Below, in pieces: positions 2,907-59,533 of a DNA stretch of 64,000 bases. How positions within the stretch are numbered: the first letter of the stretch is position 1; every line of letters starts with the position of its first letter. A program made the position numbers and the translations under genes. Below the pieces are notes generated by a model, which was given only the letters and a program-made list of their open reading frames with translations, searched no databases and was not told the DNA's origin. Source of the DNA: Yuukianura sp. NJ FZ-2021 (taxonomy: Eukaryota); contig CM102289.1 of NCBI GenBank assembly GCA_046563655.1, positions 3,968,001 through 4,032,000 of the forward strand, read 5' to 3'.

Positions 2907-5554
2907 TGTTCCAATTTCCCAAGGCGTCCTTTCGTGCTAGAGATTTAGCACTGTTCAGTTTTGCTGACTGCGGTTTGATCCTGTTCTCAGAAACTTCAGC
3001 GTCAGAATGGTGTGATCTGTGATTGTACGGGAATCGATTTGTGAAAAAAAGTTTATGGAATTTCTTACTACTGTTAGCAGTTAAGAAGAGTCAAATTTAA
3101 TGTGATCCTATCGAGAAAAAGTTGTTGACTTGTCAAATTAGACAAAGACAAAATCATTTAAGATAATATTGGTTTACAGTTAAGCCTTGATGACGTTGCA
3201 TCGATATGTTAAGGGAGGCTTTTAGTTCCAGCAGCCAAGACTGAATGTGAAATTGAACAATGTTGATGTTTATAAACAATGGAAATATTTGTAGGTTATG
3301 TGTACAAGTGACACTGAATTCCTACGCCATTGTTCAAATTTTATAGTTCTAGTAAAAATTCTTAACTGGAAAATGCTTCATTGAATCAAACGGCACATCT
3401 AAACTAACAAACAAATTTTTAACGTAATTTAATAAAGCAAAAGGCTTCAAAAGTTTTCTTTTGAAAAGCGCTGCATCGCAGTAAGTCATGACTTTAATTC
3501 GTGTCAAAAATGCTGTCTTTAGCGCTATAGAACCAAGCCCATTTTTTGAACTAACAGAAATTCCAGCGTATTGCAAGCAAGAACTCCTAACAATTTACAC
3601 TAATAAAACAATCGAAATTTAGTGGAAAACTTTAAAGCCAATAATTGCCTAGACGCGTCGTTGCTAACTAATGCTTGAGCAATGGAATTGAAAATCGTGA
3701 GAGTGAAACAAGAGACGGAAAAGTCATTGGGTTAATTACCATTTGACATTGATTAAAGTCCAAAACCAGCGTGGGAACTTGAATCTTGATTTCGTCTTTG
3801 CAAAAACTAAATGTTGTAGTGGCTAAATTATAAAAAGTATTAAAAATATTGAATTACTTTGGTAGATAAGCACTTTGGCAGAAACTTACTGTAAGTTATA
3901 ATTTCCTTCTTTAAAATCACTGATGACAGCTCTTTTTTTTTACTTTGTATTATTGAGTATAGTTTCAAAGTTTGAAGTTCAAATGATTGAAACTCAGCGT
4001 CCTTTTTAGTGCGTGGTACATTTACGTATGACGATATGATGATAACAAACAAACTTTAGAAAAAATTGAAAGAAAGTTTTAATACATTGTATATCACGTA
4101 ATCGTAAAGTAACTGTAATAGTGAGTGGATTCTAGATTAATCTCAAAACTCTACCAATGGAAAATGCTGACAAGTCAAAATTTGTGTTAAAAAAATATCA
4201 CAAGGCTTTCATAAATCCAGTTTTTATATTTTTCTAGACAGAAATTACGCATCTCGTGGAATTCCCTGATTTCCAACTCTACTTTTTTGTGCAGACTTGA
4301 CAATTTTCAGAAATCTTGTAAAAGTGAGACCACCGGAAACCTAGATTAGCAATTTTAATTCATTGGCTGGCTTTGATTAGAATAGCTACACTCAAGCGGT
4401 CTAAACTCTGCACCTTAATCAAATCACACTCTAAATTGAAGGAAAGTGTTGTAAGATTTGAAAGTCAGAGAAAACGAGAAAAAGTGATAAAAGACGCTCA
4501 TATGATTCCGTAGCAAGAGCAACCAGCATCACTGTCTTCGCTGTCAAACTTATGTTGACTTCAACCATGTACAAACTTTGCTATAAATGAATGAGGGGAT
4601 GGTAGAACGTTGATCTTAAATTCGACTCAGCAGTTTAAGGTCACTCAATGGATGGGCGTGGCCTTGACGTCCTTAGTTGCCAATGACAACATGCCATCCT
4701 TGCAAAATAAAAAGCCCGCGAATCCCGAAATTAGCAATAACCTATTCATAGAACTGTTCGAGTATACTTCAAAATTATGATGTTTAAAGGCCATAAACAA
4801 GTTTGCAAGTTCAAAAAAAATTTGTGTTTCCTATCATTTCTGGATATAATTTTCTATAATTTTCCATCAAACAAATCAAAGTTTTGGGTGCCTATCTAGA
4901 AACTTGGGTTGTATAGCTAATCAAATTCTCAATATTTCTTGAATATATTGTAAAGTAATTGAGCCTTATTTTTTAATTAATTTTAACTTTTTGTAACCCA
5001 TAAGCATATTTTGTATTTTAAAATCTAGCTAAATTTACAGCCAGAAACTGTATTTTAGAATGAAAATAATGAATATAAACTTTTCTTTTCTAAGTGCTTG
5101 CGTATTTATCTTCAAAATTTCACCTTATGGCACAACTTGGCAATGGATTCCTACCAACATGACATGATAAATTCGTCAAATTTGAACCGGAGCAAATCCG
5201 CGTTTCTTCCTGGCTGCCATACGCCTGGTGTGTGGTGTCCATAGAACGAGAAGCAATAGGCTTTTGATTAATAGTTTAAATGTACTAAAACGGCTTATCG
5301 CTAATACCCAATCCGACTGGATTTGTGATTATGATTAAATACTTGTTGGTGTCAAAACAGGGATTAGCAAAATATTCACAATGCTCACTTAATTGTCCAA
5401 ATTCCTTTGGAGTGGATGGCTTAATCAAAAACAATTGTTAATCTAATCCGAATTTCAGTAAAAATTCCTATGAAAGTAGAGTAGCAGTAAACAGTTGAAG
5501 TTAGTCAGGGTTCTCGTCGTGACACGGTCAATTGGCCATACTTCAACTTCAGTC

Positions 5555-16499: not shown

Positions 16500-16594
16500 C
16501 TCTATCTGCAAATTCCATAAGTAGATGAACTCTAAAAATGAATCTATGAGTTTAGTTATGTAATAAAATTGTTGTATTTGTTTCTTTTAGAAGG

Positions 16595-18208
16595 ATGCCA
16601 CCAAATCCTAGGATTGAAAACAATGTGGCACCGGGTTCAGATTCGACCTTTGAAACCAAAGTGAAGAAGGAAATTTTGTACGATGGATACTTCTACGATG
16701 TCACGGAATGGGTGAAACGACATCCAGGAGGAAAAATTATTGAATTTTATACGGATAGTGGGGAGGATGCGACCTTGGCTGTTCAGCAGTTTCATCAAAG
16801 GTCAACCAAGAAGGTCATGGGCATCATGAGTTCACTCAAGAAACGACCCGCTACAGTTCAAGCTCTGAGCGAACGTAAGTTCTTCAATTCGTGGATTTTT
16901 CGGTTTGATAAATTCATATTTGTTTTGGTGCTAGGTGGACTAGACAATGAAACTTTGAGACGCCATGACGCTCTCACCATTGACTTTCAAGCACTTTTCG
17001 AAGAACTAAAGGCTGAAGGAAAGTTTATTCCATCTCCGATCCATGTCACTTACCGACTTATGGAACTCGTGATCTTCGCTGCTCTTGGAATCTACTTGAT
17101 TCTCCAGGATGCGTTGTGGCTAAAGACACTAGGAGTATTGAGCTTCGCAATGTTTCAAGGTCGTGCGGGATGGCTACAGCATGAAGGAGGTCATCACTCA
17201 TTGACGGGAAACCCAAAGGTGGATCGACTTATTCAGGCTCTCGTATATGGTAAAAATCATCTTAGAATTCTGAAATTCAGCATTAGATTGCGTAAGATCT
17301 ATTTTTTTCAAAATAAAATTCAGGACTTGGTGATGGAATGGCTTCAAGATGGTGGTCCAGTCAACATAACCGCCATCACGCCATGCCGCAACGTTTGAAG
17401 CGCGATGTGGATCTCGAGACATTACCGCTGCTGGCTTTTAATTCCAAAGTAGTCAAAAATCCAAAGCATGGGAAAACATTCCTAATCCAAAATCAGGTTA
17501 GAAATCAAAACTTACGTCGTAATTTGAGGTTTCGAAAGCTTCAGGTACTTTTCTCACGAAAATTATGGACTTTTTTTTGAATTAGGCAATACTGTTCCTG
17601 GCGATAGATACGTTGTTGGTAGCTACAATGTGGAAAATTTACCTTCATCCACGCTACGTAATACAGCGAGGAAACTACCACCAATTTATTTTCATGGCTC
17701 TTCACTACGTCCTTGCGTACTACGTTGGCTTCGTTCCGTACATGATCTCTGTCTGGCTCGCGTCTGCGTACATCTTTGGCAACTTTGCTCTTTCCCACAC
17801 CCATTTGCCAGTGACATCAGGGCCCCTGCATTGGGTAGAATACGCACTACTCCATACCATGGACGTGGAACCATCTTGGTGGTGCAATTGGTGGATGAGC
17901 TACTTGAACTTTCAGGTGATTTCAAACGCAAATTATTTATGAAATAGTGTAATTTAAAAGCAAAATCTCACATTCAAAAAAAAAATCTCAAATCATTTTT
18001 CAAAACCTCAAACGAATTTTTTTAAATCTAGATCGAGCATCATTTATTCCCGACGATGCCTCAATTCAGACATCCGCAAATCACAGACAGAGTGCGAAAA
18101 TTGGCAGAGAAACATGGAATTCCTTACCATTGTGCGTCCTACTCCGATGCAGTGTGCCTCACATTCAAGAATCTGGAACATGTATCCGAGGATCTCAGAC
18201 ACCAGTGA
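16595..18208 (+). CDS. Front-end (delta-4/5/6/8-type) fatty acyl desaturase with cytochrome b5 domain, copy 1
   Basis: HPGG heme motif and His boxes HEGGH, HNRHH and Q|IEHH. Five coding exons, stop TGA 18206-18208. Confidence 0.95.
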
Positions 18209-18697
18209 CCTGTGACATTATCAACCTCAGTCTATAACTTACTTCCTGCAAAGTAACAACTATGACTGGTTGGACAACATCGATATTTTATTAATAATAT
18301 ACAAATTGCTATTCGGCCATCCTTAAAGTTAAATAGTAGATATTGGAAAAATTAAAGTTAGGAATGTCAATCTCAACATTCTCGTTAGAAAACAATTTCT
18401 TAAGATTGTTTCAGGCATGGGTAGACATAAAAGATTTACAATGTTAAATTCTCAACCTCAGAAGCACATTATGTTAAATAAATCTTAGCAGTTAAAACTG
18501 CTAGACTTTTGGAATATTTTTTTTTGAAATAGTTCAGGGTGCTTAGAAAAAAGGCGGTTATGAAATACCCTTTTTATTAAATATATTTCAATTTCAAAAG
18601 TACATTTTGTTACGTAAAAATTGAATAGTTTTTGTTATAAGCAAAAAGGAAGGAATTCTTATTAGACAACGCATAAGGCCCAAAAATATTGCTAATT

Positions 18698-20559: not shown

Positions 20560-21850
20560 TGTTGCAGTAGAAAGTGTTAGGAGAGAGTCAGCACGTCTGG
20601 ATTCTGCCGCAACTTTAGCTCATAGCAGTTCGTATATTTGGACCCTAACTAAACAAAACTCAACAGTCCTCCTTAAGTTCAAAGCTCGAGTTTCATATCA
20701 GCATGATTCAATGACTTTTGAAGAGCAAAACGAGGTCAAACAGGATTTTTACGAAGCAAAATAAGAAAGGCATCTTTTTTCTACTGGACACCAGTCTCTT
20801 ATATTCGGCAGACTTATTACATGCCACTCTTTTCTCTTTTAAGTCTATTTGGACCTTTCTCAATAACGACATAATCTCTCTTAAGTCAAAAGATGTTCGA
20901 CCGGCATTGAGAATGTTGACAAAACTAAAACTACGGCGTGTCTCGTTTTGAGAACACGGTTTTCAAATTCGAAAATCGCCTTACAAACCGCTAGCTTTGC
21001 TAAATATCCATTTTTTGAAATTGTGGCCACAAACCTAAAAGGAAGAGCTTTTTTGGAAGGTTAATTTTTCCATAACCCAAAAATACAACAACAAAAACTG
21101 TCAAACAAAAGGCAAACTACGGTGTACAATGTACACTGTACATGCTGCATAACTAGTAAACCTTCCTGGATTAGTAAAATTTAGCCAATAAATTATGGCA
21201 ATTCCAAATCTTTGAAAATAACACATGGACAGAGGAGCAACTTTTACTTTTTAAATGTGTTAAATATATTTTTTATTGCAAACGCTACTCCTGCATTACT
21301 TTCATCTTGGAGTTCGCATGTACATGTGTACCAACGGCGTTATTGCACTAAAAACTGTTTTTAATCACAATTAAAACTAAAACTGTTTTGAACAAAAATG
21401 TGACGTCCGTGTTTATATTACTCATCGCACAGAAAATTTTGTCTCAAAAATCCATCATACTACTGACTCTGCTAGATGCTAAGAAGGAATATGACATACT
21501 AATTTTATTTTTAAAACATCTTAACCCGTTCAAAAAAGACGCAATGCTTTTGACAGATGCCATCGAAATCCACAACCAAGAGGATTCAGACGTACGCTTC
21601 AGTTGAAGAAACGAAGCGCCTATTTCATAAAAATGATAAAACAATCACGAAATTATCTGGATTCAAATGAAAAAAATTGACGTAATAATTTCCAGTGAAA
21701 AATGACAAAAAGACAGCCACATCAAGGTTACTTTCACGCATGTCAACAATTCCTAAGTCCGCATTAACAAGAAGCGACAGAACAGATTTCCTTTTAGTTA
21801 GTTCGAGATAATTTAGTTGTGTTGTATAAAGTAATTACAGTAAAATAGAA

Positions 21851-23478
21851 ATGGCACCGAATCAAACAACAGGAGGAAACGTAGAAACACACTCAGATTC
21901 TACGCTTGAAACAAAGATCAGGAAAGAGATTTTATACGACGGTCAATTTTACGATGTCACGGAATGGGTCAAACGACATCCAGGAGGAAGAATCATTGAA
22001 TTCTATACGGACTGTGGGGAAGATGCTACTTTGGCTATTCAGCAGTTCCACCAAAGATCATTTGAAAAGGTTACAGGCATCATGAGTTCACTCAAAAAGC
22101 GACCCGCTACAGCCCAGGCTCTGAACGAACGTAATGATTACATTATGAGTCGTAATTTATTGAATTGATAAGTTTTTCAGTTGAAAAAATTCATGTTTTT
22201 GAATTTGGTGGTAGAAGCAGAACTGGATAATGAAAGGCGGAGGCGCCACGGCGCTCTTACCCAGGACTTTCAAGCACTTTTCGAAGAACTCAAGGCCGAA
22301 GGAAAGTTTACTCCGTCTCCGATCCATGTCACTTATCGACTGCTGGAAGTCGCAATTTTCGCGGTGCTTGGAGTCTACTTGCTGTTCTGTGAAACGTTTT
22401 GGCTGAAAGCAATCGGAGTTTTGAGTTTTGCGATGTTTCAAGGTAGGGCAGGATGGGTTCAGCATGAGGGAGGCCATCACTCATTGACTGGCAATCCAAA
22501 AGCGGATCGATTTATTCAAGCTGCTGTTTTTGGTAACGAAATGTTTATTCGAAAATGACATTCTTCTAAAAACAACACAAAGCGAAACGTTTGTTTTGCT
22601 AGGACTGGCAGACGGAATGGCAGCAACCTGGTGGTCCAGTCAGCATAACCGCCACCACGCCATGCCGCAACGTCTGTCGCGAGATGTGGACCTAGAAACA
22701 CTTCCGTTGCTAGCATTCAATTCAAAAGTTGTGAAAAATCCAAACCATGGAAGAACGTTTTTTCTTCAAAATCAGGTAACACATTCATGTTTCAGTCGTA
22801 AAACGACGAAATTTGGTAACTTTGAAAGCTTCTTAGTGTTGATTGTAGTAAAAGTATTTGGCACAATCAGTAATTTTTTGTGCTGTTTCGGTTAGGCAGT
22901 TCTGATGGTAGCAGTAGATACCTTGTTAGTCTCTACCATGTGGAAACTCTATCTTCATCCGCGCTACGTTCTGCGTCGTGGCAACTACCACCAGTTTATT
23001 TTCATGGCTCTTCATTACGTATTTGCCTACCACATTGGATTTATACCGTACATGATCTCCGTGTGGCTTGGATCTACTTACATCTTCCTGAATTTTGCAC
23101 TGTCTCATTCTCATCTTCCCATTGCATCTGGCCCACTACATTGGGTTGAATATGCATTCCTCCATACAATGGATGTGGAATCATCTTGGTGGTGTAACTG
23201 GTGGATGAGTTACTTGAACTTCCATGTAATTCAGAGTACTTAACATACTCAAATTCAAGAATGAGTTGTTGGACAGTTAAAACTTTTGTTTTCTTTTGAA
23301 GATTGAACACCACCTCTTCCCGACAATGCCAGGATTCAGGCATCCACAAATCGCTGATAGAGTGCGAAAGTTGGCGGAAAGACATGGAATTCCTTATCGA
23401 TGTTCGTCTTACTTTGACGCAGTACGCATGACCTTCCAGAACTTGATTCATGTTTCCGAAGATCTCAGGCAGCACTAA
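21851..23478 (+). CDS. Front-end fatty acyl desaturase, copy 2 (third His box HIEHH)
   Basis: Close paralog of 16595-18208 with the same five-exon layout. HPGG, HEGGH and HNRHH are present. Exon 4 ends AAC TTC CAT|GTAATT (23226) and exon 5 starts ATT GAA CAC CAC (23302). Confidence 0.93.
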
Positions 23479-25689: not shown

Positions 25690-28600
25690 TTATTGCCCAG
25701 CAAACCGTACTACCATCTGAAAAGGGTTCAGAATCGTACAATTAAAAGACGTAAACAAACCAGTCCTTATATGAGTCAATAATTGCGCTTGTATACCTGA
25801 ATTGTACCCATGTTAGGCACGCCTGCAACATACTCATCCAAATTTGCGACAACTCTTTGGTTCACAGAGTATGGCAAACGGTCAAACGGATACCCCATAG
25901 GTTTAGCATCAGGATAAAGCTGATTTGCTACGCCACAGAACAGTGGAGCAGCAATGCACGACTGTCGCGTGTTTCCACCAGGAACGAAGTCGTCGTTGCT
26001 ATTGGTTACCATCACGAACAAATCAAACACCATTCCTGCCGGCGTTCCTTTTGGCAACAGCATATTCCGCGGCCATCCACAACCACAATAAGGAGTACGC
26101 ATACTCGCGTCACCATTAAGCTCTTGCAAAGATTGGGCCCAAGGAACCGTTAGCGTAGAGTCCACTGATCTCCGTTGTAAGTTGTTTACTCCCGGGCGTA
26201 CTGTTAAGAAACAAAACAATCAAATCGGTTATAAGAACTTAAAATATGTTATACTTGTTTTTACGTTGAACGCCGTAAGTGTCCAAAACGAAAAAGAAGC
26301 GACGCTGATGTATCATGCTGAAGCGGTTTCCATTTTCATCAAATCGTGGTGCCAGGAATATTCTAACTGTCCCTTGCACATTAGCTTGGTTATCGTTGTT
26401 CTTCAAACAGTGAAACAGTTCAACAATGTTACAATCTTTCTTAATTTGGTATCTAAAAAGCTTCAAGAAAACTTACAACAGTCAGTTGATACGTAAACTC
26501 CTCATGGTCCAATTGCTTTGCACAAATTTGAATTGGACTTGTATTGGGCATAGACTGTAAGTCGAGTCCACGGCTGATTGTAATGGATTGCTGACTCCAA
26601 AATGTTGTAACTTGATTGGTCGTGCCAGATTGAGCTGGAACTACAGCCAAGCCTGTGACTCGTACTCCCGGCCACATTAGAGGTAGCTCACCCTGAAAAT
26701 ATTAGAAACTTAAGTTGACACCATGTTACGGAAGTGTAAGCAAACAATTTCAACGAACTCGGATCTAATGTTGACACATACCCCGTTTGGAGTGTATGGT
26801 GTTAGCCTATCTTTATGAGCTAGAAACATTTCCTGGACCACTTGATGCCAACGGTAAAACAGTGGATCACGTATCGCTGGAGCAGCGTCGCCCATGACTC
26901 CTGGAGCCGTCTACAAAGAAAATAACATATTGCGATATATTGCGTATAATACGTACGTTTTAATGTAAACAATTATACACAAGCCGCCAAATCTAAACAG
27001 CAGCTTGTCATACCCTTGAACGATACTGCGGATCTGCTATAAATCCAAAGATGAGATGACCATTATTGTGTATGCCAGTGGCCGAAGTGGAGCCGTAGTA
27101 TGAAGGATTTATACTCCATTGGTTTGATTGTATAATGTTGCCGAGGATGTTAATACCCTGGAGATTGTTTATCGAAATTCGTTGGTTCCGTGTCTAAACA
27201 GGTTAAGTTCATGAAACTCATTAGACAGACGGCTAGCTTTACATTGGCGGACGTGTGCAAGTAAAATCAAATTACGTTAATCACAAATCCGTCATTGATA
27301 GACTGAAGTACTCTAGCCCTTGCTTGCAGTATGTGCGTGTCAAACAAAACATTTGTTTGGAGGTTGGGGTCGTTTTGATGAAGAATATCCTGCATTACAT
27401 TAGTTTTAGTAAAGTTCAAGGCACATTTACTGCAGGTTGTTTTTTGAAAGTGGAACCTACGGAAACTGGTAGATTAGCAGGACGTGGAGTCCAATCCATC
27501 CCAGAATTATCATCTCGCAAGTGTGGATTGTAACCTTCCACAGTGGTACCCCGTTGAAGTGGAGCAATCGGTTGGACTCGGCTTAATCCATTTGAAAAGC
27601 GGTCGGCATTGTACCTTCGAGATAAAGTAGTAACATAGGAATATGGGATTTTAATATCTATCAATCCAAGAATTTGCCTTAGTTTAGTTCTCGTACCGGG
27701 CAACAATAGCACTGTGTAGGTAGTAGAAGAGTTCGCCATGTCTGTCTTCCTGTTGTCGGGCACCAAACGGGTACATGGTATGATAGTACCAATGATGCGA
27801 GTTGATACCGATGCTTTCGCGAAAGTACCACATTGCATTTTCTATTCCATTGTCCGCACCTACAGTCTCATCCGCAACTACGCAAGTCTAGCAGAAATGT
27901 TTACAAATCAGTAACTCTGTTTTTAAAAAATCTCAATTAAGGTCGAGTGCTGGTCACCTGTTGGTTCTGGCGCTTGCCGCGTCTTCGTTGTTGTCTTGCA
28001 AGTCTAAGAGTTTCCGAATAAATAAACAAGTCAGGAAGAGCATCAATTGGAGGTACTCGGTGAATAACTTGTAAGTCTGGGTTCTTCTGGGCAAGGTTGG
28101 CCAGAGCGTAGTACCAAAGATGAGGGTGAACGTTTTGATTCTTTTGTAATGATTTGGCAATGTCAAGCATTTCAACAGTGGAATTTCCGCCTATGAGCAG
28201 GAAAGTGGATGATCATTGATCAAATAAAACGTTAACTAATATTACTTCAGTTTAAATAAAATTAACGCTATTTCAGTCATCTTACTGAGCAAAATTTGTC
28301 TGACTTCATGCAAAGCCTCTCCATGAACAGGAGAGAATGAATAAAACATCCCAGCCTTTGGAACGCGCTGTGCAAGATTACTCATGTCCGGAAGCGGATA
28401 GAGTGTCGCCGGATCTGGACGAGGTGATGGAGACCCTGCTTTCGGAAATAGATCGTGATATTTGTTGCGAATGAAGTCCATTATGTCCTGAGGCGATGGA
28501 ACCCCCGGGGGTACACCTCCACTCGCTGGCTGACTTGGGGTTGAACCCCCGGGGTTTTCTTGACCCCCACTCAGTGCTGGTCCCTGCTGTGGTTGATTTC

Positions 28601-41007: not shown

Positions 41008-44000
41008 TTACGTTTGAGCTGGTAGCGGAAAATGGTCAACTACTTCTCCATTTTCTAGGCGAACGTAATTCACATCCTGACCCCATGGGTTAGCGTAAGA
41101 CATTTCAACTACGCGTGCACCGCGAGTCCTTCCGACCCAACCACCACCATGACCAGACTGCCTATTGTAGCACAGTACCGTCGTTCCATAGTTGCAACAC
41201 CAACCGTTCGCTGTTAATTACAAAACCACTTTTAAAGTCGAGTCAGATGGTTACAGTAATTACATAAATTATGCTCCGTTTCAAAACTTTATTCCGCCTG
41301 TGTATTTCTCTGGTCCCCGCTCCCAACGCCTCCCCCTCTACCTTTCTCCAAATTTTGAACCAGGTTGGCGCGAAATATTCTGGTTTGTTTACATTTTTTC
41401 AAAACTTTGCTTACAGCTGATTCTCTTCAAGAACACTTTTAAAGTTTCTCTTTCGTTAAGTTTTAATTTTTTTAAACCCAATTCCGAAAGGTTAGTTAGC
41501 ACTGGGGAGTACCGTATTTTCCCAAATAGTACACCTGGTGTACTAATTTTGTTTTCGACTTCTGGGGGTGGTGTACTATTAGGGACCTGGTGTATTATTA
41601 GAGACGGTGTACTAATTAATTTTTTAAGAATGAGGATTTTATTCTTAGCTAAAACGTTTAGGAATCAGGAGAAAATAATTTCTAAATTACTAAAAACTAC
41701 TCCACTTCGTTTTCAGAATCCGTATCCACAGTGTCCAGCTCGTATTCTTCTTCTCCACTTGAGTCAATTAACACTTTGTTAACACAATTAAGCTTTGTTC
41801 CGTCACCTTTGGCCGCTAGAACAAGCGTTGCGTGTGCCTTCTCATTTCTAGTCGACTTTAGTTGAACAGTTTTAGATCCAGTTGGAGCAATTGTTGTGTT
41901 GCTCAGCATGTCGAACCACAAACTGATTTCATCCATTGCAATAATTTGGGACGGTTCGATCTTACGCTGGCGTACGACTTTACTTATAAATGTAGCCAAA
42001 TCTGCAACTTTTGAAAACAATTGATCCGGATCCTTTTGTCCTACTGTAGTCCTCCGTCTTAATGATAGTGAGTGTCTTTTGAGAAAACGATCCAGCCAGC
42101 CCAAACTTGCGACGAACTTCGTTCTGTTTCCGTTATCCAATGTTGGGAAAATCCTCTTCGCCTGCTCTTGAATCGAACGCCGTGAGACTCTTAACGATTT
42201 GTTTCGTTGTTCCATAATCCAGTAAAAGAGTGAATCATTCAACTCAGGTATCAATCGTTTCCGTCCAGCGCCGATCAACCTTTTGTGTTTGATCTTGGAT
42301 GATTTCACGTTTGACACTGTAAACAAAATACTGTTTCAGTATGAATGTAATAATTAGGAAAAAATATTTTATTCACAATAAATTACTCACCTAAATCATT
42401 TTCCTTTCTAATCCATGTCCGAATACTCTGTCGATCAATGTTGTATTCTTTAGCAGCTGCCGCAATTGATTTATCCTTGGCCAATTTCACCACTTTCAAT
42501 TTGAACTCCAGGTCAAATGATCTTTTTTTGTTGGGAGACATTTTAAAGTAAGAATACGAATTTTAAGTAAAACAATTTGGAGAGAAGTAACGTGGGGCCA
42601 AACACAACAAAGGAAGAGCTATAATATTAGCTCAGCTAACTGCTCCGGGTGGTATACTCCTAATGCTACATTCCCAAAGACCCTGGTGTACTATTAGAGA
42701 CCTGGTGTACTATTTGGGACGGTGTACTAATTAATTTTTCGACTTCTGGGGGTGGTGTACTATTAGGGACCTGGTGTACTATTTAGGTATGGTGTACTAT
42801 TAGGGAAAATACGGTAAGTGTAGTGATGACGAGTGTATTAACACCGCCGAATCCTCCTCCAGTACGTAAGATTAAGTCTCCAAACATTAAATTGTCCGAG
42901 ACTAGATACATCCAAAACATCTATGAGTACTTGAAATTTGTGAAAGAGAACACTGGCAAAGAAAATATTCCAATTGGATTCGTTACTCCAGGGAAAAAAA
43001 CGTAAGTAATACGTTGGATTGAAAACCAAATCAAATACTTCAATTCTGAATACGTCATATTTCGAAATTGAGTATGGCTGTAAGAAATCAATTCCTGTAA
43101 TTTCAGATTCCTCAAATCATAGGGAAAATGGTCGGGGTTACCGAAAGAGCAGTGAGGAATCATTTAAAGAAAACAGACTTGGAACCAAGGAAACATAGAG
43201 GAAAGAAAACGAAGCAAGACAACATAGAGGATTTTGAAAAATGTGCCATACGCGATTTGATTACACAAATGTTCATGACGGTTAGTATAAGAAAATCAGT
43301 TTTTTGCCTAAACAATACGAAAAATGATTGTAAAATTCTGTTATTTTTTTAAAGGAATTTACGTCACTTTGTACATAACCATAACATAATCGATTATGTA
43401 CCTAACCTTATTCTTTGATGCATGTGCAAAAGTAACTGCATTTGATTGGATAAATGCGATCCGTCATTGCAAAAAAGAAGAAGAAAAGTACTGGATCAGA
43501 GACGGAATTTCGTCAATGACACCAATTCAACCCATTGTTTTCATGGTGAACACTGGAGACTCAGATGAAAGTGATGAGTTTAAAGAAACCGATAACGAGG
43601 AAAATTAAATCGCTAATTATCTGATAGTTTTATGTGAATGTTTTGTTTCTAATACCATAAAAATGCTACTGAAGATTAAAAAAGTTTTTTGGGTATTTTC
43701 GTGATGTTTTCCTTATTGTCACTACATTTCTAGCCGACGCATGGTTTTACCTCCAACTTGAGACAAACCTCCTTCGGGAGAAAGTGAAAGCGGTGGGGGA
43801 GCCCGTCAAGAGGAGACGGAATAAAACTTTGAAACAAAGTATAACTTCATTTGAACGTATATTAAGTCATACCGTGATTATGTCCAGCAAACGTAATTTT
43901 TACCATGCCCGATGTAACAAGAGCATCAATAAGCCCTGTATCTGGATCTTGCGGGTTCACGACATCATCTTAAACAGAAACAAGAAAACCTTTTGTTTTC

Positions 44001-45595: not shown

Positions 45596-47673
45596 ATGTC
45601 TCAAAAGTATTCGATTTTGTTTGCGCCACTCGACGCCGTCGGTCACGTCAACGCCTGTATCAGTATTGCGCAGACGCTGCGTGACAGAGGTCACAAGGTC
45701 ACGTTTGCTACTCCATTGAACTGGAAAGGAAAGTTACAACTCCTGGGATTTCATGAAGAAGTGTACGCAACTACGGAAACCAAGCAGGAGGATTCAGGCC
45801 AAGTAGGAGACACTTGGTCTCAAAATGTAGCCAAAATGGCGGCAGTTTTGGGCTGTTCCCCAATCGAAAGGCACGCAAAATTTCAAATTGAAAATTGGCG
45901 CAGTATGTTTGAGCAAATCAAGTACCAACATCCCAGGCTCAAGGAAATCATGGACACGGTTCAGCCGGACGTCGTTGTAGTAGACTACCTTTCACATATT
46001 CCCGCTCTCATGAATCACGGTATTTTTCAACAAATACAAATACTTTATACAATTTATATGTAGTTGTGAAATATATCAAAATGTAAAATATAAAATATAT
46101 CATTTCCCCACATGCATCTCGTAAGCATACGTGGGCGTGCATGGCAGATCGGGATTAGAACACAAACTTTCAATAATTTCAATTTCCGTCCAAAGCTTCA
46201 TCTGTCAACTTTTTATGCAGGTACAACTCCATGGATATTTCTGATGTCATGCAATCCTATTGGTATTTCGGATGTTAACGTTCCTCCTGCCAATTCCGGA
46301 TATCCAACTGATGGTGATCGTGAAATCTGGCGGAAGTACATGGAAGAAGTAGAACGAGTTTACAAAAACGAATTTCTGGAATATAAAAAATGGATTTTGG
46401 AAAATGGCGGTCCCGAACTGGAGTTCACATACCCATACTGGATGAAATACTCTCCCTGGGCAAACATTTACAAGTTCCCGCTAGAACTGGACTATACCGA
46501 CCTCCGACCAAATCCCAAAAACTGGTTTCGATTCGATGGATTTGTAAACGACTGCGCAGAGAGTTTCGAAATTCCCGCAAACCTACGTGATAGAAGCGGG
46601 AAGCTAATTTACTTCTCAATGGGAACTATTGGCTCCGCGGATGTTTCTATGATGAAGAGGCTCATGTCCATTTTGGCCAAATCTGACAACAGATTTATTG
46701 TGTCAAAAGGTAACTCAACACACGAAAAAAAAACAAGTTCCAATTGGATTTTTTTAAAAAAAAGTTTTCAAATTTTTAATTTGAAGGACCAATGGGAGAC
46801 GAATTTGAGCTTCCAGAGAACATGTGGGGGTTGAACAGCGTTGCGCAGACGCAAATACTCCCCTGCGTTGATTTAGTGATAACTCACGGCGGGAATAACA
46901 CAATTTCGGAATCGTTTTTCTTCGGAATACCACTGCTCGTTTTGCCTGTGCTCTGGGACCAGTTGGATTCTGCACAAAGAATACACGAATGTGGTCTGGG
47001 TCTTAGATTTGACCCGTACAAGGTCACCGAAACGGAACTTCTGGAAGCCATTGAACAGTTACTGAGCAATCAACTACTCAAAAAAAGAATGAGAACAATT
47101 TCTCAAAGAATCCGCAGCTCAAATAGTCAAAATGCAGTTGCTGATTTGATTGAAAAAGTCGCTGAGGAAAGAAAATCTGAACAAAAACTTCATGTTACAA
47201 GGTGTAAAATTGATATACGAAGTCCAGAAACTACTGAAGAGTGGGATGACTACTACTCACTTCGGTATGAAGTTCTGAGACGACCTCTTGGACAACCAGT
47301 AGAGTCGGCGCGAGTAGAGGACGATGACAACTCGTATCATTTTGCAGCATTTGAGCATGGGCACAAAGTCAAAGAAGTCCTCATCGGAGTAGTTTGTGTG
47401 AAGTTTAAAACGGAGGAGACAAATTCAGATGCAAAGTCTACGATGCAATTGAGACTGATGGCAGTTATGGATGGTAAACAAGGGAATGGAATCGGGAAGC
47501 AATTGGTTCTACATGTTGAAGAATTTGCAAGAAAGAAAGGAGCCACGAAGATGTTTCTGGAAGCTCGCGAAAACGCTGTCAAATTTTATGAACGTCTTGG
47601 TTACAATGTTGTTAAGAAAAGTCATCTACTTTTTGGAAAAATTCAACATTACTCAATGGAAAAGTTGCTGTAA
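45596..47673 (+). CDS. UDP-glycosyltransferase (bacterial MGT-type GT1) fused to C-terminal GNAT acetyltransferase, 599 aa
   Basis: Exons 45596-46019, 46221-46709 and 46787-47673 total 1800 nt in frame. UGT motifs: GHVNAC (catalytic His), IYFSMGTIG, AQTQILPCVDLVITHGGNNTISES...PVLWDQLDSA. GNAT from ~47209: LRYEVLRRPLG, QLRLMAV..QGNGIG, ARENAVKFYERLGY. Confidence 0.92.
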
Positions 47674-48209
47674 AAGGCGCCAAAAAAACGAACTTGACCT
47701 TGAACTTTGGCTCGGAAGTTGGCCACCTCCGGTCAAACCTTCCCTATTGTTGCTCCATTTCTTCTCCTTCATTGCACCAAACAGTGTACATCCTAATTTG
47801 ATAGTTACTGCGTCGAAGCAGATTAGGAATGATCAATTCTTAACTTTTAATTTAAGAAATAGAAAAATGAATACAGAAATCATATTCGCCACTAAGTAAC
47901 TCCAAATTCGGTTTGTATTTTTAGATTGAAATAGAGAGGACAACGCAATTTGACAAAATTCAAGGTTAAAGTTAAATTGCAATATCGACATAAAGCTACT
48001 AGGATGAGTTACAGTAGTGAAAGAGAAACAGAGATTCGAGAATGGACTCAAAACAGATTAGATTTAACTCCATAACAGACCTATTGACATTTGAAACTTT
48101 ACACTGACTTGGAGTTCTTACAGCCAGACAGTAGTAACAAACAGGCTAAATTTTGTTGATAGCCAGTTGTCTCTTTTTTCTGTTAATTTTCTAGAACATT
48201 TTGAAAAAT

Positions 48210-50493
48210 ATGTTATTCACGTTGACTTTAATTTTTTGTATAACTTTGCTTTTATGGGGGTTTAACATTCTATCACGTCCAAAAAACTATCCTCCAGGTA
48301 AGATTTGTTATTTTAAATAAAAAATTAAAAAAATTTTTTTTTGTCAAACTTCATTTGTCTTAGGACCATTTCGGTTTCCCATTGTTGGAACGTTGCCCCT
48401 GCTAGCAATTGGAGGATTTCAGGAGAACTTGAGCAAATGGAGAAACCAATTTGGAAATATTTTTAGCATCTATGTGGGTCCAATTAGGTAAAACAGACTA
48501 TGATCATGGCGTTTATTCATTTATATACATACTTATTTTTTATTGTTGAATTTCGGTAGCATTGTTGTTCTAAACGACTACAACTTGATCAAAGAGGCTT
48601 ATTCCATGGAAGAATTTACTGGACGACCATTCAATCCACAAATTCGGGAGATTGCGGGTGATGGACGCAGGGGTATGACCATCATATCTAAAACATTAAG
48701 TTAAACCAAACCAAGGTTCCTTGACAACCAAATTGTATTCCTACAACAGGTTGTGCAATAACTAAAAAATCTCAAAAGAATATTTTTTTCTTCCAATTTG
48801 TATTAGACAACAGGTAAATAATTACTATAAAAATATAGATATATATAGGGGAAAATTTTTTTAACAATTCTCAAAGCATTGCGTGATTGGACAACCCGGG
48901 GTAGAAAAAACTTTTTTGTCTTTTTTACGAACCTTGAGTTAAACCTACTCTTAACAAATTAGGCGGCAAATGTCATGAAATGCTTCACTCTAATTCTGCA
49001 GGACTTGTAGCTTCAGAAGGTGCTCAATGGGAAGCTCAACGTCGCTTTGCTCTGCGACATTTGCGTGATTTTGGCTTTGGTAAAAGATCTCTAGAATCAG
49101 CAACGCACGAGGACATAGTTGACCTCATAGCTAAGTTCAAACAAGACGCAGGTCAACCGATTTCAACAGCACTCAGATTCAACCTGTCCGTCGTCAGCTC
49201 CCTCTTGCGTATCGTCACAGGTCAAAGATATGAACTGGATGACCCTGAGTTGTGGAATGTCATCAACAAGCTAAAAGCGTAAGAATCAAACGGATATTCT
49301 TTCCTTCAATATAAACTGTGCAATGATATTGATAATGCGTTTTGAGCTGGGCTATATTTTTAATCAGCGCCATTACTACCTCGACTGGAATCACACCAGC
49401 GCTATTTTCACTGACATGGCTAGTAAAAATCGCACCAAACTTAATTGGTTGGACTCGATTTAAAGATGGCATTGAAACTGCAAAGGAATTCATGAAGCAG
49501 CAAATTGAAGAACACAAAAACACGTTTCAGGAGGGAAACTTTCGAGACTTCATTGATGTCTACATTAACGAAATGAAGCAAACAACTGATCCCAAGTCTT
49601 CATTTTTTAATAGTGCTGGCGGTAAATTCTAAAATGTAAAATTAAATTATATAATTTTTCAGGTTGAGGAGTTTAGTCCTTTTTTTTGTTACAGAAGAGA
49701 ATTTACAAATAACGACGCTAAACCTATTGGGTGCTGGCTCAGAAACTACGAGGTAGCAATTCAATTAATCAATTAACGTCAGAACATTATAGTGATAAAA
49801 ATCGGACTAAATTTTAAAAATTGCAGCTCAGCGTTGACATGGGCCTTGTTCTACTTAGCTCAAAATCTAGAAATCCAGAAAAAGTTTCAGGCTGAAATTG
49901 ACGCTGTTGTTGGGCGATCAAGACTGCCGAGCTTAGCAGACCAAGACTCGTAAGCTTCTACGAAGTACACGTTTTTATTAGTTTTAACTTTATTTTAGTT
50001 CATATTAGTTTAATTGGGTTTTTAACGTAGCCCATAAACGTTTTTTTTTAGAATGCCCTACGTTGTTGCAACTATCCAGGAAATGTTCAGAAAAGTGTCT
50101 TTCGCGCCACTTGGAATTCCGCATAGTACCATGACTGAAGTCAACTTTCACGGTTTTACAATTCCAAAAAACACGATTATCATGGCAAACATCTACGATG
50201 TGCATCACAACAAACAGATTTGGGGTGACCCAGAAGTTTTTCGACCTGAACGATTTTTGACCCCTGATGGTAAAGCACTGGTCAAAGGTCATCCCCCTGT
50301 AATTCCATTTGGCATTGGTAGAAGAGTGTGCATTGGAGAAACCTTGGCAAGAAACAATATTTTCCTGTTTCTCGTTAGTCTCCTTCAGACGTTTCACATC
50401 AAGTCACCAAAAGTTCTTGAGGAACCGAAAATTCCAGGCGGCGTTTTTCGATTTCCACCAGAATTCATGGTTGTTTTTGAAGAGCGACAATAA
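48210..50493 (+). CDS. Cytochrome P450, CYP2 clan
   Basis: N-terminal anchor + YPP|GP..FPIVG, WEAQRRF..LRDFGFGK, RDFIDVY, I-helix AGSETT, ExxR (EMFR), PERF and heme motif FGIGRRVCIG. Confidence 0.95.
48705..48942. mobile_element. Putative MITE in P450 intron
   Basis: Starts ACCAAGGTTCCTTGACAACC...CAACAGGTTG and ends ...GAACCTTGAGTTAA (weak inverted end). Resembles the ends of the repeats at 62122-62395 and 63893-64000. Confidence 0.35.
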
Positions 50494-52408: not shown

Positions 52409-53010
52409 CCTAATTCTTACTATCAAACAAACGAAAGCGGTAACAGCTTGATTACAGTAGATAGCAGGGACATTGACAAATAAAGTTCAGATTAAGTTTC
52501 CCATCCAGTTTTACACTAAATCCAGTTTGGAGTGAATTAAAAAATTTATTAAAAATTACGTATTAAAAACGAAACGCTTAAAATGCGATATGATGAGAGT
52601 AGATTTTCGAAATAAAATAGTAATGAATAACTTTGTTCCACTTCTAAGCGGTGTGTAACATTCTTGGTTCAAATGTCAATACCACTTATGTATCCTTGCA
52701 TTGCAATTAGCTTTATCATAAACCGGTTCTTTTGAAATCTGAATTTACAAAACGAAGGCGAGCCTTCCACTACTAAAGAATGTAGGCAAATCAGGAAAAA
52801 AAATTATTGCAAAACTGAGTTTCATAAAAAAAACTACGTATGGTTCATGCAAAAGCATGAACAACAAAAATTGTGCTTCGCATTGCGCACATTTGCGTTA
52901 CACGACTTCTCGCACGTGTTCGTTGTTCTTTTGAACAAGAAAAAAAAGAGAAACTACAATGGTAAAAGATAGAATTTTTATTAATTTTTAATTTTTAATT
53001 TTTTAACACA

Positions 53011-54703
53011 ATGATTGTTTTCTTGCTTTTTCTGAAAGAGTGCGTTCTTCATATTTTGTGTTGCTCAGCAACGCTAATTGTTATTGTTCCAGTGTCAGTA
53101 ACATTTGGAATTTTTGCGTTAATCAAGTGGACAATCAATTATTTTGTTATTCGTGCTCATCCGACGTGGACACCTTTAAGTGCTTTTGACCTCGCATGTT
53201 CCGTTTTCTTCAACCAATTCGACACAAAGGAAGCTTTCAACAATATTGGATTCACAATAGTTCTCGATACAGAAGTGACATTAGAACAAATCAGAAAAGA
53301 TTTTTGCCGTCATTTGTTGGATGTAAAGTCTGGGTCAACTGCCCATGCGCAAACTGCGGAGTATGCATTTGATCGACTCCGAAAGCGTCCCGTAAAATGT
53401 TTTGGAAACTACTATTGGAGAGACATTCCAAACGACAAGATTGACCTCACCAAATTAATAATTGAGCGGAAGATAGTGGCGAAGACTGACCTGCCCAAAT
53501 TTTTGAGCGATTGGCTGAGGGTGAACTTTGACCCAAATGGACCCATGTGGGAAGTTGTAATTTACAGAGATGAAGATGAGTACATTGGCAAAACAGTTTT
53601 GGCTTTCAAAATGAGTCACGTGCTGGGTGATGGAATAACAATTCAACAAATGGCTGAAGCCATTTTCACTTCGAACGAAAACAATAACAACGTTATTACA
53701 GTTTCTCAAACTTCCGCCACGTCGAGAAAGTCAACGCTAAGCTTGAAGACTGTTTTGGCTGCTCCTCGCATGCTTCTAGGGCAAGCTTCAGCAATCTTCC
53801 TCCACTCCGATCTCATTTCAAAAATGAAAAAGTCTCATGAAATGCTTCTGACACTTGCAACGATTGATCTTGAGCCAGTGAGAACGTTGGCGCTTGCAAA
53901 TCAATGCAAAATCAGTGATATCTTGGTCACTGTTTGGTGCAACGCGTTGCGCAGAATCCTGTTGGATTTAGGCATCGCTGAGCAGAAACTACCAAGCAGT
54001 GTACGAGTCGTTTCACCCGTAGCAATTCCAGGGCGAAAAGCGAAAATGCTCAATGCAATGTAAGGAAGCTTGATAAATTTGTTTTGATGGTTTTGATTTC
54101 TTAGACAGTTTTATTTGTCTTACAATTGTTTTGTTTTCTGATTTCATCCAGGTCAATTGGAATCTTAGAAATGAATATCCGCAGCAGGGATCGAAACCAG
54201 AAATTAGCACAGCTATTGGAACAGTCCAGAAATAATGTGGAGTACGGTCTGTATGATGTGATGGAAATTTTTTTGAAATTAGCATACTTTTTACCATTGT
54301 GTTTTGTAATTCCCCCGGAGAAAGCTCGGCCTGGAGTGTCCTGTGCAGTGAGCAGTTACCCCATTCCGAGTTTGTTGACGTCAAAAAAGCTGGCGTTTGG
54401 AAAATATCATGTTTCGCACTTTTATGCAATTCAACAACTATTCACAAAGGAGTTTGGTGTGTTCCCAACGCCTTTCTTTTTAGTACTAAATTTATTTATT
54501 TATCGTACATACTTAATTATACATACATTTATTGTTTGGCAGGGTTCACGAGTACATTTGTTACAAACAACGGCCGAATCGACATAACAGTGTCTGGGAA
54601 CAAAGGGGTAGTGAATTCTCAAGAACTCATGGACAGATTTCAGAAATACTTGATCAAAGAAGTTCATAATCTAATGGATACTTGCAGCGTGTCCGCAGTG
54701 TGA
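53011..54703 (+). CDS. Wax-ester synthase/DGAT (WS/DGAT)-like O-acyltransferase, copy 1
   Basis: N-terminal hydrophobic segment, F-DPNGPMWEV, catalytic-loop variant FKMSHVLGDG (HHxxxDG family), and C-terminal TFVTNNGRIDITV. Three coding exons. Confidence 0.75.
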
Positions 54704-55603: not shown

Positions 55604-57427
55604 TCAAACAGTTTGCAACATGCAACAATCGCTTAACAAATGAAGTTCTTCTTTCAAATAAGCTGGGAACAAATCCAATGTTGCCTGGGTATTTACGACG
55701 CCGGTATTGGCAGCAATTGCAACGTCGATTTTTTCTTTGCAAGTTGTGACAAACGTTGCCGTGAATGCTATAAATATCCAAAAAAAATTAATTAAAAATA
55801 AATAGGGTTTCCTTAAAAGCTTTTAGCTAGAAAACTGCTAAGGATTTATTTAAAATAAACAATTTTTTTTAAAAGGTTATAAGAAATCGTAGGCGACCTA
55901 CCCAAGTCTTTTGTAAATAGCTGCTGGAGGACAAAAAAATTCGACGCTGGATACCTTCCGAACGCCAAATTTTGGCTTTGTACTAAACACGGTATAGGGA
56001 AGCTTGTGACTGCGCATGTGACTCCTGGTTTGGCTTTTTCTGGTGGAATTACAAAACATAATGGTAGGTAGTATGCCAATGCCATAATTCCTTGCATCAC
56101 GTCATATAGCCCGGAATTCAGATTGTGCTGCGATTGTGCAACAAGAGCGGAAAGCTTTTCTCTGCGGTTTGGATTTTTAATTTGTGCGTCCACTATGGCC
56201 ACAGTCCTAGAAGTAAAAAGTATTCGATTTGAAAGTTAACGATTGTTACGCATGTTGAATACGGATATGAACTTATTAGTTGAAGTTACTTCTAAGTTTA
56301 CGTAAGATTAATTAAAGGCTGGTTTAGAAAATTATAAAAATAGTTTGTATAATTCGTAAAAAGTTTATGCTTAATTACAGGCTGTTGCCCATTTTCTTGA
56401 CGTTTCCTGGGATAGCTCTGGGTGAGACTATTGCAATGTTTGACGGCAACTTTTGTTCCTCAATTTCCAAATCCAGCAGGATTCTACGCAAAGCGTTGCA
56501 CCAAACACTCATCAAAATGTCACCAATTTTGCACTGGTTCGCATGGGCTAAAGCCCTCACTTGTTCAAAATTCATCGTTGAAAGAGTGAGAAGCATTTCA
56601 TTAGACTTTTTCATTTTTGAAATAAGATCAGAGTGGAGGAAGATAGCTGCTGCTTGGCCAAGGAGCATGCGCGGAGCTGCAAGAACAGTCTTGAACCTCA
56701 GCGTTGATTTTCTTGACGCGGAGGAAGTTTCAGAAACCGTAATAACGTTGTTATTGTTTCCGTTCGAAGTGAAAATGGCTTCAGCCATTTGTTGAATTGT
56801 GGTTCCGTCACCCAATACGTGACTCATTTTGAAAGCCAAAACTGTTTTACCAATGTACTCATCTTCATCTCTGTAAATTACAATTTCCCACATGGGTTCA
56901 TTCGGGTCAAAGTTCACCCGCAGCCAATCGTTCAAAAATTTTGACAGGTCAGTCTTCGCCACTATTTTCCGCTCGATTATTAATTTGCTGAGGTCGATCT
57001 TGTCGTTAGGAATGTCTCTCCAGTAGTAGTTTCCACAACATTTTACGGGACGCTTTCGTAGTCGATCAAATACATATTCGGCAGAAATCAAATTCTCTGT
57101 TGTCTTGTACTTCAAGTCCAACAAATGAGTACCAAAGTCATTTCTGATTTGTTCCAGAGTCACTTCGGCGTCCAGAACTATTGTGAAACCAACATTGTTG
57201 TACGCCTCTTTCGTGTCAAATGGGTTAAAGAACACTGAACAGGCGAGGTCGAGGGCGTTCAACGGAGTCCATGTCGGATGAGCACGAATTACAAAGTGAT
57301 TGACTGTCCACTTGATTAACACAAAAATTCCAAAAGTTACTGACACTGGAACAATAACAATTAATGTTATTGTCCAAGACGCAATTTGGAGAAAACTTTC
57401 CTTTATTATTGTCACAAAGAAATACAT
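55604..57427 (-). CDS. WS/DGAT-like O-acyltransferase, copy 2 (inverted, convergent paralog)
   Basis: Core nearly identical to 53011-54703, including SHVLGDG, with the same three-exon layout. The last exon is FTATFVTTCKEKIDVAI...LQTV* (TGA 55604-55606). Confidence 0.75.
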
Positions 57428-59533
57428 TATAATAAACAAAAGCCAAATAAATTCGGTGAGTGATTTGCTGTTCCTCTTTTATAATTTGGTGCTAAATATT
57501 CAACGTTTTAAATTCTTGGTGATTGTTTGTTGCTCAAGTATGATCTGATAACTGAAAAAATTTAAGTTCAGTCTTTATACTATAACGGAGATTTATTTCA
57601 TAGTGGCTTCATTGTAAATTCTTGTAGAATATTAAAACCCATCTCTTCCACGCGTCCTCCCATTTTTCTTTCGTGATATTTGCTTCCTGATTAATACCTA
57701 GTATACATAGTTTTCTGGAACTTTAATTGAACTTTATAGGAACTCAAGACATATTTGAGAATTCAGCGGGTGGTACAGATGTACATATGAATTGTTATTG
57801 TTATTGTCTAGTGACAGGATAGGAAAGATACCAACAATCATCCTTGTGACTTGATTTATTTGCGTCAAAAGATCAAACTGTAAACAACCTGTGACGCACC
57901 TTTGTCATTCCTTTGTTTTACCAGAGGCTTTTGTATAAAAGCACGCATTTTCGAAACATAACACCTTCACACAAAAAATTTCTACGTAAACTATCGGAAT
58001 TACAAATTAATCTTTTTCTTGAATTTCGAAATTTTAAAAATATGAATCAGCTTGAAAATAATTATGAATTGCAAAAGTATCAAACTGCTCTTATCATAAG
58101 AGTCAGGTGAGTTATAATACTGGATTTGGGAATTTTTTTTCTTATTTTTATTTTAACAAAAAAAAATGAGAAAAAGTGGTCGAACCAGTTGAACTCACTT
58201 ACCGTACACTCATCTATGCGTGTATTGAAAGTGTATTAAAGTGTATTAAACGCTGAAAACAAAAACAACGTCGCTTTGTTGAGCGACCTTTTCTGTCTTT
58301 AGCATTAGACAAACAATGTAAATAATTAATATTGTTGTTGTGTGGAATATTTCCATGTGGTATATATTTCCACTTCCTTATTCTGATTTTCTGCCGATCG
58401 ATCCAATAACTTTTATTTATGATATTACTATATCTACAAAATTGAAAAGAAAGCAGAGACGTTGTTAAATTATGGCTACCTGTAAACGGAACTGAAAAAT
58501 AAGGTTAACACGGTAAGCGACGTAGGAAGAAAATTCAGCTCTTCAAGGTGTGCCGAAACGCCATGCACCGTCAATAGTTCTATTTTCTAATCCACATACA
58601 GATCTATAAATATTTTGAAATTTGAAATTTGAAATTTTGAAATTTTAATTTTGTTTTTATACGTCACAAGTATACTATAGTATAGTAGTGAAGCTATTCT
58701 ATGCAAATTTTCAGTTCCTTTTGTAAAAGTATTTGAAATTTAAACTTGATTTTTCTTCATTATGTTTGGAAAATGAGAACAGAGAATTAGTAAATTTCGT
58801 CCTTAACCGTTAAGAGGATTTGTGAACGCGTATTATACGCGAGTGTGTATTACAGCCATGCAAATACGTATCAGCATCAGAACGTGGACAAATTGAAACG
58901 TTTTTGGACGTAGATGGATGTTATCTGAAATTTGTAGACAAAACTTATAATCTTTGTGTATGCCAGTTGTCTCTAGACAGTTACATGGGTAATGACAATT
59001 GCACGTTTAATAAGTGTGAGATGATAGAAAAGTTATGTTCACCGCTATTGATTTTGAGGGCGTCAACAATTGACACTTTTATATAACAGTCGAGACCACT
59101 GACCCACAATTCACAGTTCAGCTTCCAAGTAAAGGAAGGGAAAGTTCTTGAGGAGCCTCAATTTTCCACCACGGCGCTTGAAAAGGGAGAGTATGAGTTG
59201 AACGGACTTTGTCATCAGCACTTCAAGAATTCTTTTATTAAGCCACAAATTCCTCCATCACTTCCTTCCTAGCATGACTAAGAAGGATTTTTGCACAAAA
59301 ACTTCCAAATTCCCTGCATTCAATACTAATCCTCCTTGCAAATGCCTTGCACTTCTTAGTACGGTCTTGAAAGAGCCTAAAGGACAATAAAAACGAGCTT
59401 TTTGAAATTTCCAATTATCAACTAATCATTTGACGTTGACCTGTGTAAAGTGTAACCTTATAAAAGTGAAATTGAAAAGTACAGCTCGATCTACACACTG
59501 AAGTTTTAAAGATATATTTAAAAATTTTGAGTG

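Follow-up and report, generated by a model that had tools for sequence, protein, structure and literature searches.

Gene structure and the joint between the two domains

The DNA analysed here, called the window, is a stretch of 64,000 nucleotides (nt) of Yuukianura sp. NJ FZ-2021 (GenBank assembly GCA_046563655.1, contig CM102289.1, positions 3,968,001 to 4,032,000 of the forward strand). At positions 45596 to 47673 it contains a gene in which a bacterial-type UDP-glycosyltransferase (UGT) continues in frame into an acetyltransferase of the GNAT family. The gene is made up of the following features, given in positions of the window together with the guanine plus cytosine (GC) content of the introns.

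45596..46019, plus strand: exon 1, with the ATG at 45596; N-terminal acceptor domain of the UGT, carrying the His17 motif
46020..46220, plus strand: intron 1, 201 nt, GT-AG, phase 1, 31% GC
46221..46709, plus strand: exon 2, middle of the UGT; no Pfam match of its own, aligned throughout to relatives
46710..46786, plus strand: intron 2, 77 nt, GT-AG, phase 1, 22% GC, splitting a Gly codon
46787..47175, plus strand: exon 3, first part; C-terminal UDP-sugar-binding domain of the UGT with the HGG...DQ signature
47176..47205, plus strand: linker of about 10 codons, with a run of five A at 47183-47187, a weak GT at 47202 and no in-frame stop
47206..47670, plus strand: exon 3, second part; complete GNAT domain without a start codon of its own
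47671..47673, plus strand: TAA stop codon of the fused frame

The spliced exons add up to 1800 nt and encode 599 amino acids (aa) followed by the stop codon, both introns restoring the frame. When the spliced protein was aligned with 14 relatives, no gap was found over either exon junction. Exon 3 by itself (46789-47670, 294 aa) contains both domains in a single frame, as was seen from the open reading frames (ORFs) running from stop to stop. A preliminary description of this DNA had proposed an in-frame fusion inside one exon. This was confirmed, since exon 3 is open through both domain matches without a stop, and the coordinates given there proved accurate to 3 nt or less, with the GNAT homology starting at about 47206-47209. 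The two spliceosomal introns also proposed there are GT-AG introns, AT-rich and of phase 1, at positions common to the unfused relatives L081-L083. No second copy of the UGT or of the GNAT domain was found within the 64-kb window.

The joint was delimited from both sides. The match to the MGT profile stops at residue 125 of exon 3, and of the 14 aligned UGT relatives, 13 terminate no more than about 12 residues from the joint and one is a fragment. In L081-L083 the stop codons fall at exon-3 codons 131-135, where the linker begins. The GNAT homology, for its part, covers the bacterial homologues (about 145 aa) over their full length, from their residue 2 to the last. Since the UGT relatives end at the joint and the GNAT homology starts at residue 2 of its homologues, the linker can be only about 10 codons long. 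No in-frame ATG was found between 47089 and 47443, the latter being residue 80 of the 155 of the GNAT domain. In the absence of a start codon belonging to the GNAT domain, a whole GNAT would be made only as a C-terminal extension of the UGT.

Relatives of the UGT half and of the GNAT half

Bacterial-type UGTs in mites are a textbook case of horizontal transfer and are linked to detoxification. In the UGT half, exon 3 matched the UDPGT profile (PF00201, exon-3 residues 25-105, E 1.4e-11, 44.4 bits with a cut-off of 19.5) and EryCIII-like_C (PF06722, E 3.5e-12, 46.9 bits with a cut-off of 31.7). The MGT profile TIGR01426 was matched by exon-3 residues 6-125, corresponding to profile positions 271-391 of 393 (E 4e-24). 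Its scores were obtained on separate exon pieces (85.4 bits for exon 3 and 30.2 for exon 1) and the cut-off of 260 applies to a whole protein. Exon 1 gave weak matches to MGT and Glyco_transf_28. The N-terminus aligned with the starts of mite UGTs, and His17 lies in a motif common to the Oppia and Dermatophagoides UGTs; we take it to be the catalytic His of GT1 enzymes, which is expected near residue 17-20. The C-terminal domain keeps 25 invariant alignment columns.

The nearest named relatives of the UGT half were the UGTs of an oribatid mite (Oppia nitens) and of dust mites, with 41-52% identity over the shared part. The top PDB matches of the C-terminal domain were the spider-mite enzymes UGT202A2 (E 7.5e-28) and UGT203A2 (E 2.7e-27). 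Bacterial PDB entries matched more weakly, the best at 1.6e-16 and YjiC at about 1e-15. In the protein searches, mammalian UGT2B matches reached only E 1e-4 to 1e-5. A hydropathy scan, which is not a dedicated predictor, revealed neither a signal-peptide-like segment nor a C-terminal membrane segment at the ends of the protein. The peak 19-residue hydropathy (1.62) was located at residues 343-361, inside the conserved donor-binding core. The protein does not look like a canonical endoplasmic reticulum UGT (UGT1/UGT2), and the absence of the signal peptide and of the C-terminal transmembrane segment of such animal enzymes, already noticed in the preliminary description, was borne out by the scan.

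A UGT tree was built from the window protein and all 28 proteins retrieved by a long-protein search and a near-length search. In this tree the gene pairs with a metagenome protein, P0002 (support 100/99). The marked 19-row clade, far from mammalian UGT2B, unites this pair with the mite proteins and with a group of nine bacterial-like rows.

A metagenome scan with the UGT alignment confirmed 582 relatives, of which the best 80 loci were analysed. Three of these, L081-L083, lie on low-GC contigs (GC 0.36-0.40) and are 56-61% identical to the UGT. The Gly codon split by intron 2 is likewise interrupted in all three, and the position of intron 1 is interrupted in L083 and probably in L082. The introns common to these unfused relatives suggest that the UGT was resident as a paralogue, and had its introns, before the fusion. 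The low-GC loci L106, L123 and L127 are likewise unfused. Most of the other UGT loci are uninterrupted high-GC genes, with a median GC of 0.69 (L084-L160). As a separate observation, three or more bacterial-type UGT genes follow one another in tandem on contig L123 (221-4425, GC 0.33), an arrangement described from storage and dust mites.

One publication gives the mite UGT family as bacterial in origin (PMC10731231). In a second one, mite UGTs are again of bacterial origin, and springtail and rotifer UGTs cluster with them (PMC9113151). These two sources, together with the spider-mite enzymes being the best PDB matches, uphold the assignment of the UGT to the bacterial or MGT type, a family that mites are known to have acquired by horizontal transfer. 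Judged by its sequence, the UGT half falls into the family of bacterial-derived UGTs present in mites and springtails.

The GNAT half was recognized as Acetyltransf_1 (PF00583) at exon-3 residues 160-272 (E 2.1e-15, 57.4 bits with a cut-off of 20.7). It keeps each of the 16 columns that are invariant in an alignment of 18 sequences. A Q-G-N-G-I-G stretch of its translation, inside a conserved column block, agrees with the pyrophosphate-binding motif for acyl-CoA, defined in GNAT proteins as Q/R-x-x-G-x-G/A. The predicted structure of the domain showed a classical GNAT fold with a mean pLDDT of 92.7. Foldseek assigned it a probability of 1.0 to YjcF, SACOL1063 and glyphosate N-acetyltransferase, with TM scores of 0.76/0.85 to 1q2y. 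The nearest structures were YjcF, SACOL1063, HP0935 and glyphosate N-acetyltransferase, none of which fixes the substrate.

HMMER was run exhaustively against 1.84 billion representatives and retrieved 2701 GNAT matches at E ≤ 0.001, the best with 38-49% identity. The labelled matches were bacterial, mainly from Bacteroidota; the majority had no taxon label. A scan of prokaryote genomes with a 7-sequence alignment yielded 493 relatives, and the best 80 loci were analysed. These showed 40-51% identity and came nearly all from Flavobacteriales or Cytophagales. A metagenome scan with a single-protein query returned 120 pattern matches, none of which was confirmed.

The GNAT tree contained 122 rows: the window protein, 40 rows from the 80 analysed loci and 81 from the 150 representatives listed. 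The window GNAT pairs with P0030, a stand-alone protein of 156 aa (SH-aLRT 93), and this pair belongs to a clade supported at SH-aLRT 96, in which every one of the 38 Bacteroidota-labelled rows is found. A loop insertion of the window GNAT is common to P0030 and P0037 only. The preliminary description had suggested separate phylogenies for the domains and had called the GNAT bacterial and similar to YiiD and ElaA. The bacterial type of the GNAT was supported, its nearest relatives being stand-alone Bacteroidota proteins of about 145 aa. The likeness to YiiD and ElaA needed revision, as YiiD falls outside the clade of the window protein and ElaA appeared at rank 41 of the fold search.

The setting of the bacterial homologues was also inspected. 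In Flavobacteriales, the end of a family III CoA-transferase gene overlaps with the GNAT homologue (7 of the 12 bacterial loci examined), in the following places.

L003, L005, L012, L013, L018, L038 and L055, about 1900-3430 in each: overlap of the GNAT homologue and the CoA-transferase III gene

The function of the bacterial GNAT family of these loci seems to be undescribed. Fusion partners among the GNAT matches were CoA-transferase III, DDAH-like, YiiD_C, NUDIX, NAD-binding and TPR-methyltransferase domains. Recombination of the module is thus frequent, and in no case seen was a UGT its partner. P0086 is a GNAT fused to a family III CoA-transferase, and a DDAH_eukar domain is fused to a related GNAT in four long and four shorter matches. 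P0029 (292 aa) and P0038 (316 aa) are tandem duplications of the GNAT module in one protein.

Origin and possible function of the fused gene

In order to place the fusion, relatives carrying or linking both domains were sought at several levels. No protein of 516-2000 aa with both domains was found, the only match in 3068 candidates being deer UGT2B4. A near-length word-index search also gave none; its 27 matches each covered at most 45% of the query and only the UGT half. Among the best 150 of the 2701 GNAT representatives, none of the 7 matches of at least 400 aa carried a UGT. A UGT was absent from the 3 kb flanks of all the bacterial GNAT loci analysed (0/80, the best 80 of 493), and a GNAT from all the UGT loci analysed (0/80, the best 80 of 582). 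In L081-L083, no GNAT followed the UGT in the remaining 1.2-2 kb. In the literature searched, no paper was found that describes a fusion of UGT and GNAT in an arthropod. The sole similar domain order that was found is that of bacterial PseG-type GT-B plus GNAT proteins, which belong to other families and have Atlas scores below 0.9.

Composition and neighbourhood were then compared with the rest of the window. The GC content at third codon positions (GC3) was 0.45 in the UGT half and 0.37 in the GNAT half; across 15 further coding pieces from the window it ranged over 0.35-0.49. A codon-adaptation-like index gave 0.71 and 0.73 for the two halves, respectively, and 0.68-0.77 for other pieces of the window. 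The flanks of the gene are AT-rich (29% and 35% GC), and its neighbours are intron-bearing animal genes, namely those of a P450, a DEAH helicase, an LGR-type G-protein-coupled receptor and SLC12. When the gene flanks were compared by tblastx with the bacterial GNAT loci, no match had an E value under 0.1.

Altogether, the locus is a nuclear gene of an arthropod, probably of a springtail-like soil animal and not of a mite. It probably encodes one cytosolic protein of 599 aa, with two catalytic modules of bacterial ancestry brought together by a lineage-specific fusion, the UGT taking up residues 1 to 440-450 and the GNAT the last 155 or so. Host-like codons, animal neighbours, the retention of the invariant residues and the lack of a GNAT start codon suggest that the protein is made in its fused form and is kept under selection. 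In GC content, the closest bacterial relatives of the UGT half and of the GNAT half lie far apart (median 0.69 for the UGT loci versus 0.42 for the GNAT loci). Because of this gap, and because the two halves were never linked in the 80 + 80 loci, two separate acquisitions from bacteria appear to be the better-supported history, in line with the two horizontal transfer events suggested in the preliminary description.

The following course of events is proposed. The UGT family of acariform mites and springtails would derive from an old transfer from high-GC bacteria. A promoter-less bacterial GNAT frame, most like those of Bacteroidota, would later have been inserted just 3' of a resident UGT paralogue. 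Loss of the UGT stop codon and of the GNAT start codon would have led to expression of the GNAT in one polypeptide, and the GNAT would now be translated solely as a UGT tail.

With respect to function, the protein is probably a soluble bifunctional conjugating enzyme of phase-II type in which both modules are active. The UGT half would glycosylate small aglycones, using a UDP-sugar as hexose donor, and acylation of small molecules at an amine would be the task of the GNAT half. It is possible that both halves act successively on one substrate. A more speculative proposal, which seems rather improbable at present, combines the capture of the GNAT frame by an older domesticated bacterial gene with a coupled two-step reaction in the cytosol, the conjugase giving acylated glycosides or doubly tagged amine/hydroxyl compounds. 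To our knowledge, such coupled chemistry is known from no animal phase-II enzyme.

Several points weigh against the interpretation as a bifunctional enzyme assembled from two transfers. The UGT tree leaves the arthropod and the bacterial-like rows as a polytomy inside the 19-row clade, and for this reason the tree by itself is no proof of a UGT descent from an old transfer. The GNAT relatives are mostly unlabelled, so that a eukaryotic intermediate is possible, with P0030 as a candidate. The substrates of the GNAT cannot be read from its sequence, and its bacterial homologue is coupled to a CoA-transferase III; owing to this coupling, the acyl donor may be other than acetyl-CoA. Finally, an error of one base in the run of five A at 47183-47187 would put a TAA (47205-47207) in frame between the two domains.

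The explanation that survives best besides the fusion is a locus with two products, although it is regarded as unlikely. The main transcript would encode the UGT only, being spliced from the weak donor at 47202 or ending at an unseen 3' end, and the GNAT would be a decaying passenger that is rarely or never included. A GT does follow AAG at 47202, and the strength of this donor is no bar to its use, since the two real donors of the gene are themselves weak matches to the consensus. Moreover, all the close relatives are UGT-only. A decaying passenger, in contrast, is difficult to reconcile with a GNAT that retains every family-invariant residue, a confidently predicted fold and host-like codon usage. 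The UGT-only product would also have no stop codon unless one is supplied by splicing, and neither AATAAA nor ATTAAA occurs in 47000-48215.

An error of assembly or base calling at the joint, which would make the fusion an artefact and leave the UGT with its true stop codon, was given a low probability. If the run of five A contained one extra base, the TAA mentioned above would end the UGT near the ends of its relatives. The GNAT would then be left without a usable start, its first in-frame ATG being at 47443, and yet its 155 codons are intact and conserved.

Slightly less probable still is a single transfer of a bacterial MGT-GNAT pair or fusion that was already linked, with introns gained later and the GNAT lost from the other paralogues. 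Only about 5-10 codons separate the places where a UGT stop and a GNAT start would be expected, which resembles a bacterial operon joint, the UGT tree does not part the gene from the bacterial-like rows, and GT-B plus GNAT fusions of other families (PseG-type) exist in bacteria, their scores below 0.9 making them leads only. The analysed loci, on the other hand, showed no adjacency of the two genes on either side, and the strongly different GC contents of the nearest bacterial relatives speak for unlike sources. The intron positions common to unfused relatives, and the mite enzymes standing as best PDB relatives of the UGT (E 7.5e-28, with weaker bacterial entries), are also at odds with a single transfer.

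Bacterial contamination or a chimeric contig, in whose favour the widest kinship of both halves among bacteria may be quoted, was rejected as highly improbable in view of the two spliceosomal introns, the host-like composition and codons, the AT-rich flanks and the intron-bearing animal neighbours.

If the gene is indeed a fusion assembled from two transfers, a second, independently bacterial module has been added to a horizontally acquired arthropod UGT, as seen here in one genome. The result would be a layered chimera, with one transfer stacked onto another. In the course of events proposed above, it would also be a concrete example of how a foreign frame that lacks a promoter comes to be expressed in an animal through a gene already resident there. 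Should both halves be active, the protein would represent a new domain architecture for animal conjugating enzymes and a candidate for unusual metabolite tailoring in soil arthropods.

Neighbouring genes and comparison with known systems

Several other features of the window were recorded. A cytochrome P450 gene with introns (48211-50490, plus strand) starts about 540 nt 3' of the UGT-GNAT stop codon on the same strand, and a gene of phase-I type is thereby adjacent to one of phase-II type. Two long uninterrupted ORFs, at 52999-54060 (plus strand, 354 aa) and 56378-57478 (minus strand, 367 aa), matched TIGR02946 (wax ester synthase/DGAT) with E values of 2.7e-15 and 1.4e-14, respectively, far under the cut-off. 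No PDB sequence match was found for either of them. Both are candidates for additional acyltransferases of bacterial type in the neighbourhood of the UGT-GNAT gene.

A hemocyanin/phenoloxidase-like gene is located at 25779-27841 (minus strand; Hemocyanin_C, E 6.3e-26; Hemocyanin_M, E 9.7e-07), and its top PDB match was the phenoloxidase of the moth Manduca. A 2026 survey reports a gene of the hemocyanin/phenoloxidase type in no mite or tick (PMC13449613). The host is therefore probably not a mite, and a springtail or some other arthropod outside the arachnids is the likelier one. Tandem genes at 16556-18234 and 21830-23240 (both plus strand) each code for a fatty-acid desaturase of the front-end type with a fused cytochrome-b5 domain. 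About 3 kb upstream of the UGT-GNAT gene, the ORF at 41700-42335 (minus strand) contains a Tc5 transposase DNA-binding domain (E 6.2e-16) and is likely a remnant of a pogo/Tc5-type transposon. No Rfam match was obtained in the window.

Among known systems, the closest counterparts of the GNAT half are the stand-alone GNATs of Bacteroidota (Crocinitomicaceae, Cytophagaceae, Aquirufa), which have the same fold and 40-51% identity over the whole domain. These possess their own start codon and occur alone or with partners other than UGTs, whereas the window GNAT is the tail of a UGT. The solved structures are more distant relatives; YjcF (1q2y) and SACOL1063 (5jph) are both functionally uncharacterised, and the third is glyphosate N-acetyltransferase (2bsw). 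YiiD N-domains were present among the GNAT matches (P0057, P0092 and P0112) as more distant relatives outside the clade of the window protein. YiiD consists of a GNAT followed by a YiiD_C thioesterase domain, while the window protein ends with its GNAT and has no YiiD_C. ElaA was reached in the fold search only at the rank given above.

The domain order of the window protein resembles that of the PseG-type (Glyco_tran_28_C) plus GNAT proteins of pseudaminic-acid synthesis. Those proteins are built from different families (GT28/PseG hydrolase and Acetyltransf_3), and their Atlas scores of 0.78-0.85 make them a lead only. Against the PseG profile TIGR03590 the window protein scored 18.8 bits (cut-off 153.55), and it gave no Acetyltransf_3 match. 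It is therefore not of the PseG-PseH type, and the resemblance is that of an analogue and not of a relative.

The bacterial MGT, YjiC and OleD enzymes (TIGR01426) have the same fold and donor-binding signature as the window UGT, and the uninterrupted high-GC MGT genes from metagenomes are 37-42% identical to it over the full length. Bacterial MGT genes are free of introns and their loci contain no GNAT, in contrast to the window gene, which has both. The members of the nearest bacterial-like clade, P0004-P0010, have no His in the catalytic motif, unlike the window UGT with its His17. The closest counterparts of the UGT half are the horizontally acquired UGTs of acariform mites and springtails, such as UGT202A2 (6pnt) and UGT203A2 (7lvy) of Tetranychus urticae. 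These have in common with the window gene the N-terminal His motif, a similar UGT length, a soluble build and introns acquired after the transfer. Their length is about 430-460 aa in every case, with no GNAT attached, whereas the window gene continues from the end of its UGT into a complete GNAT domain.

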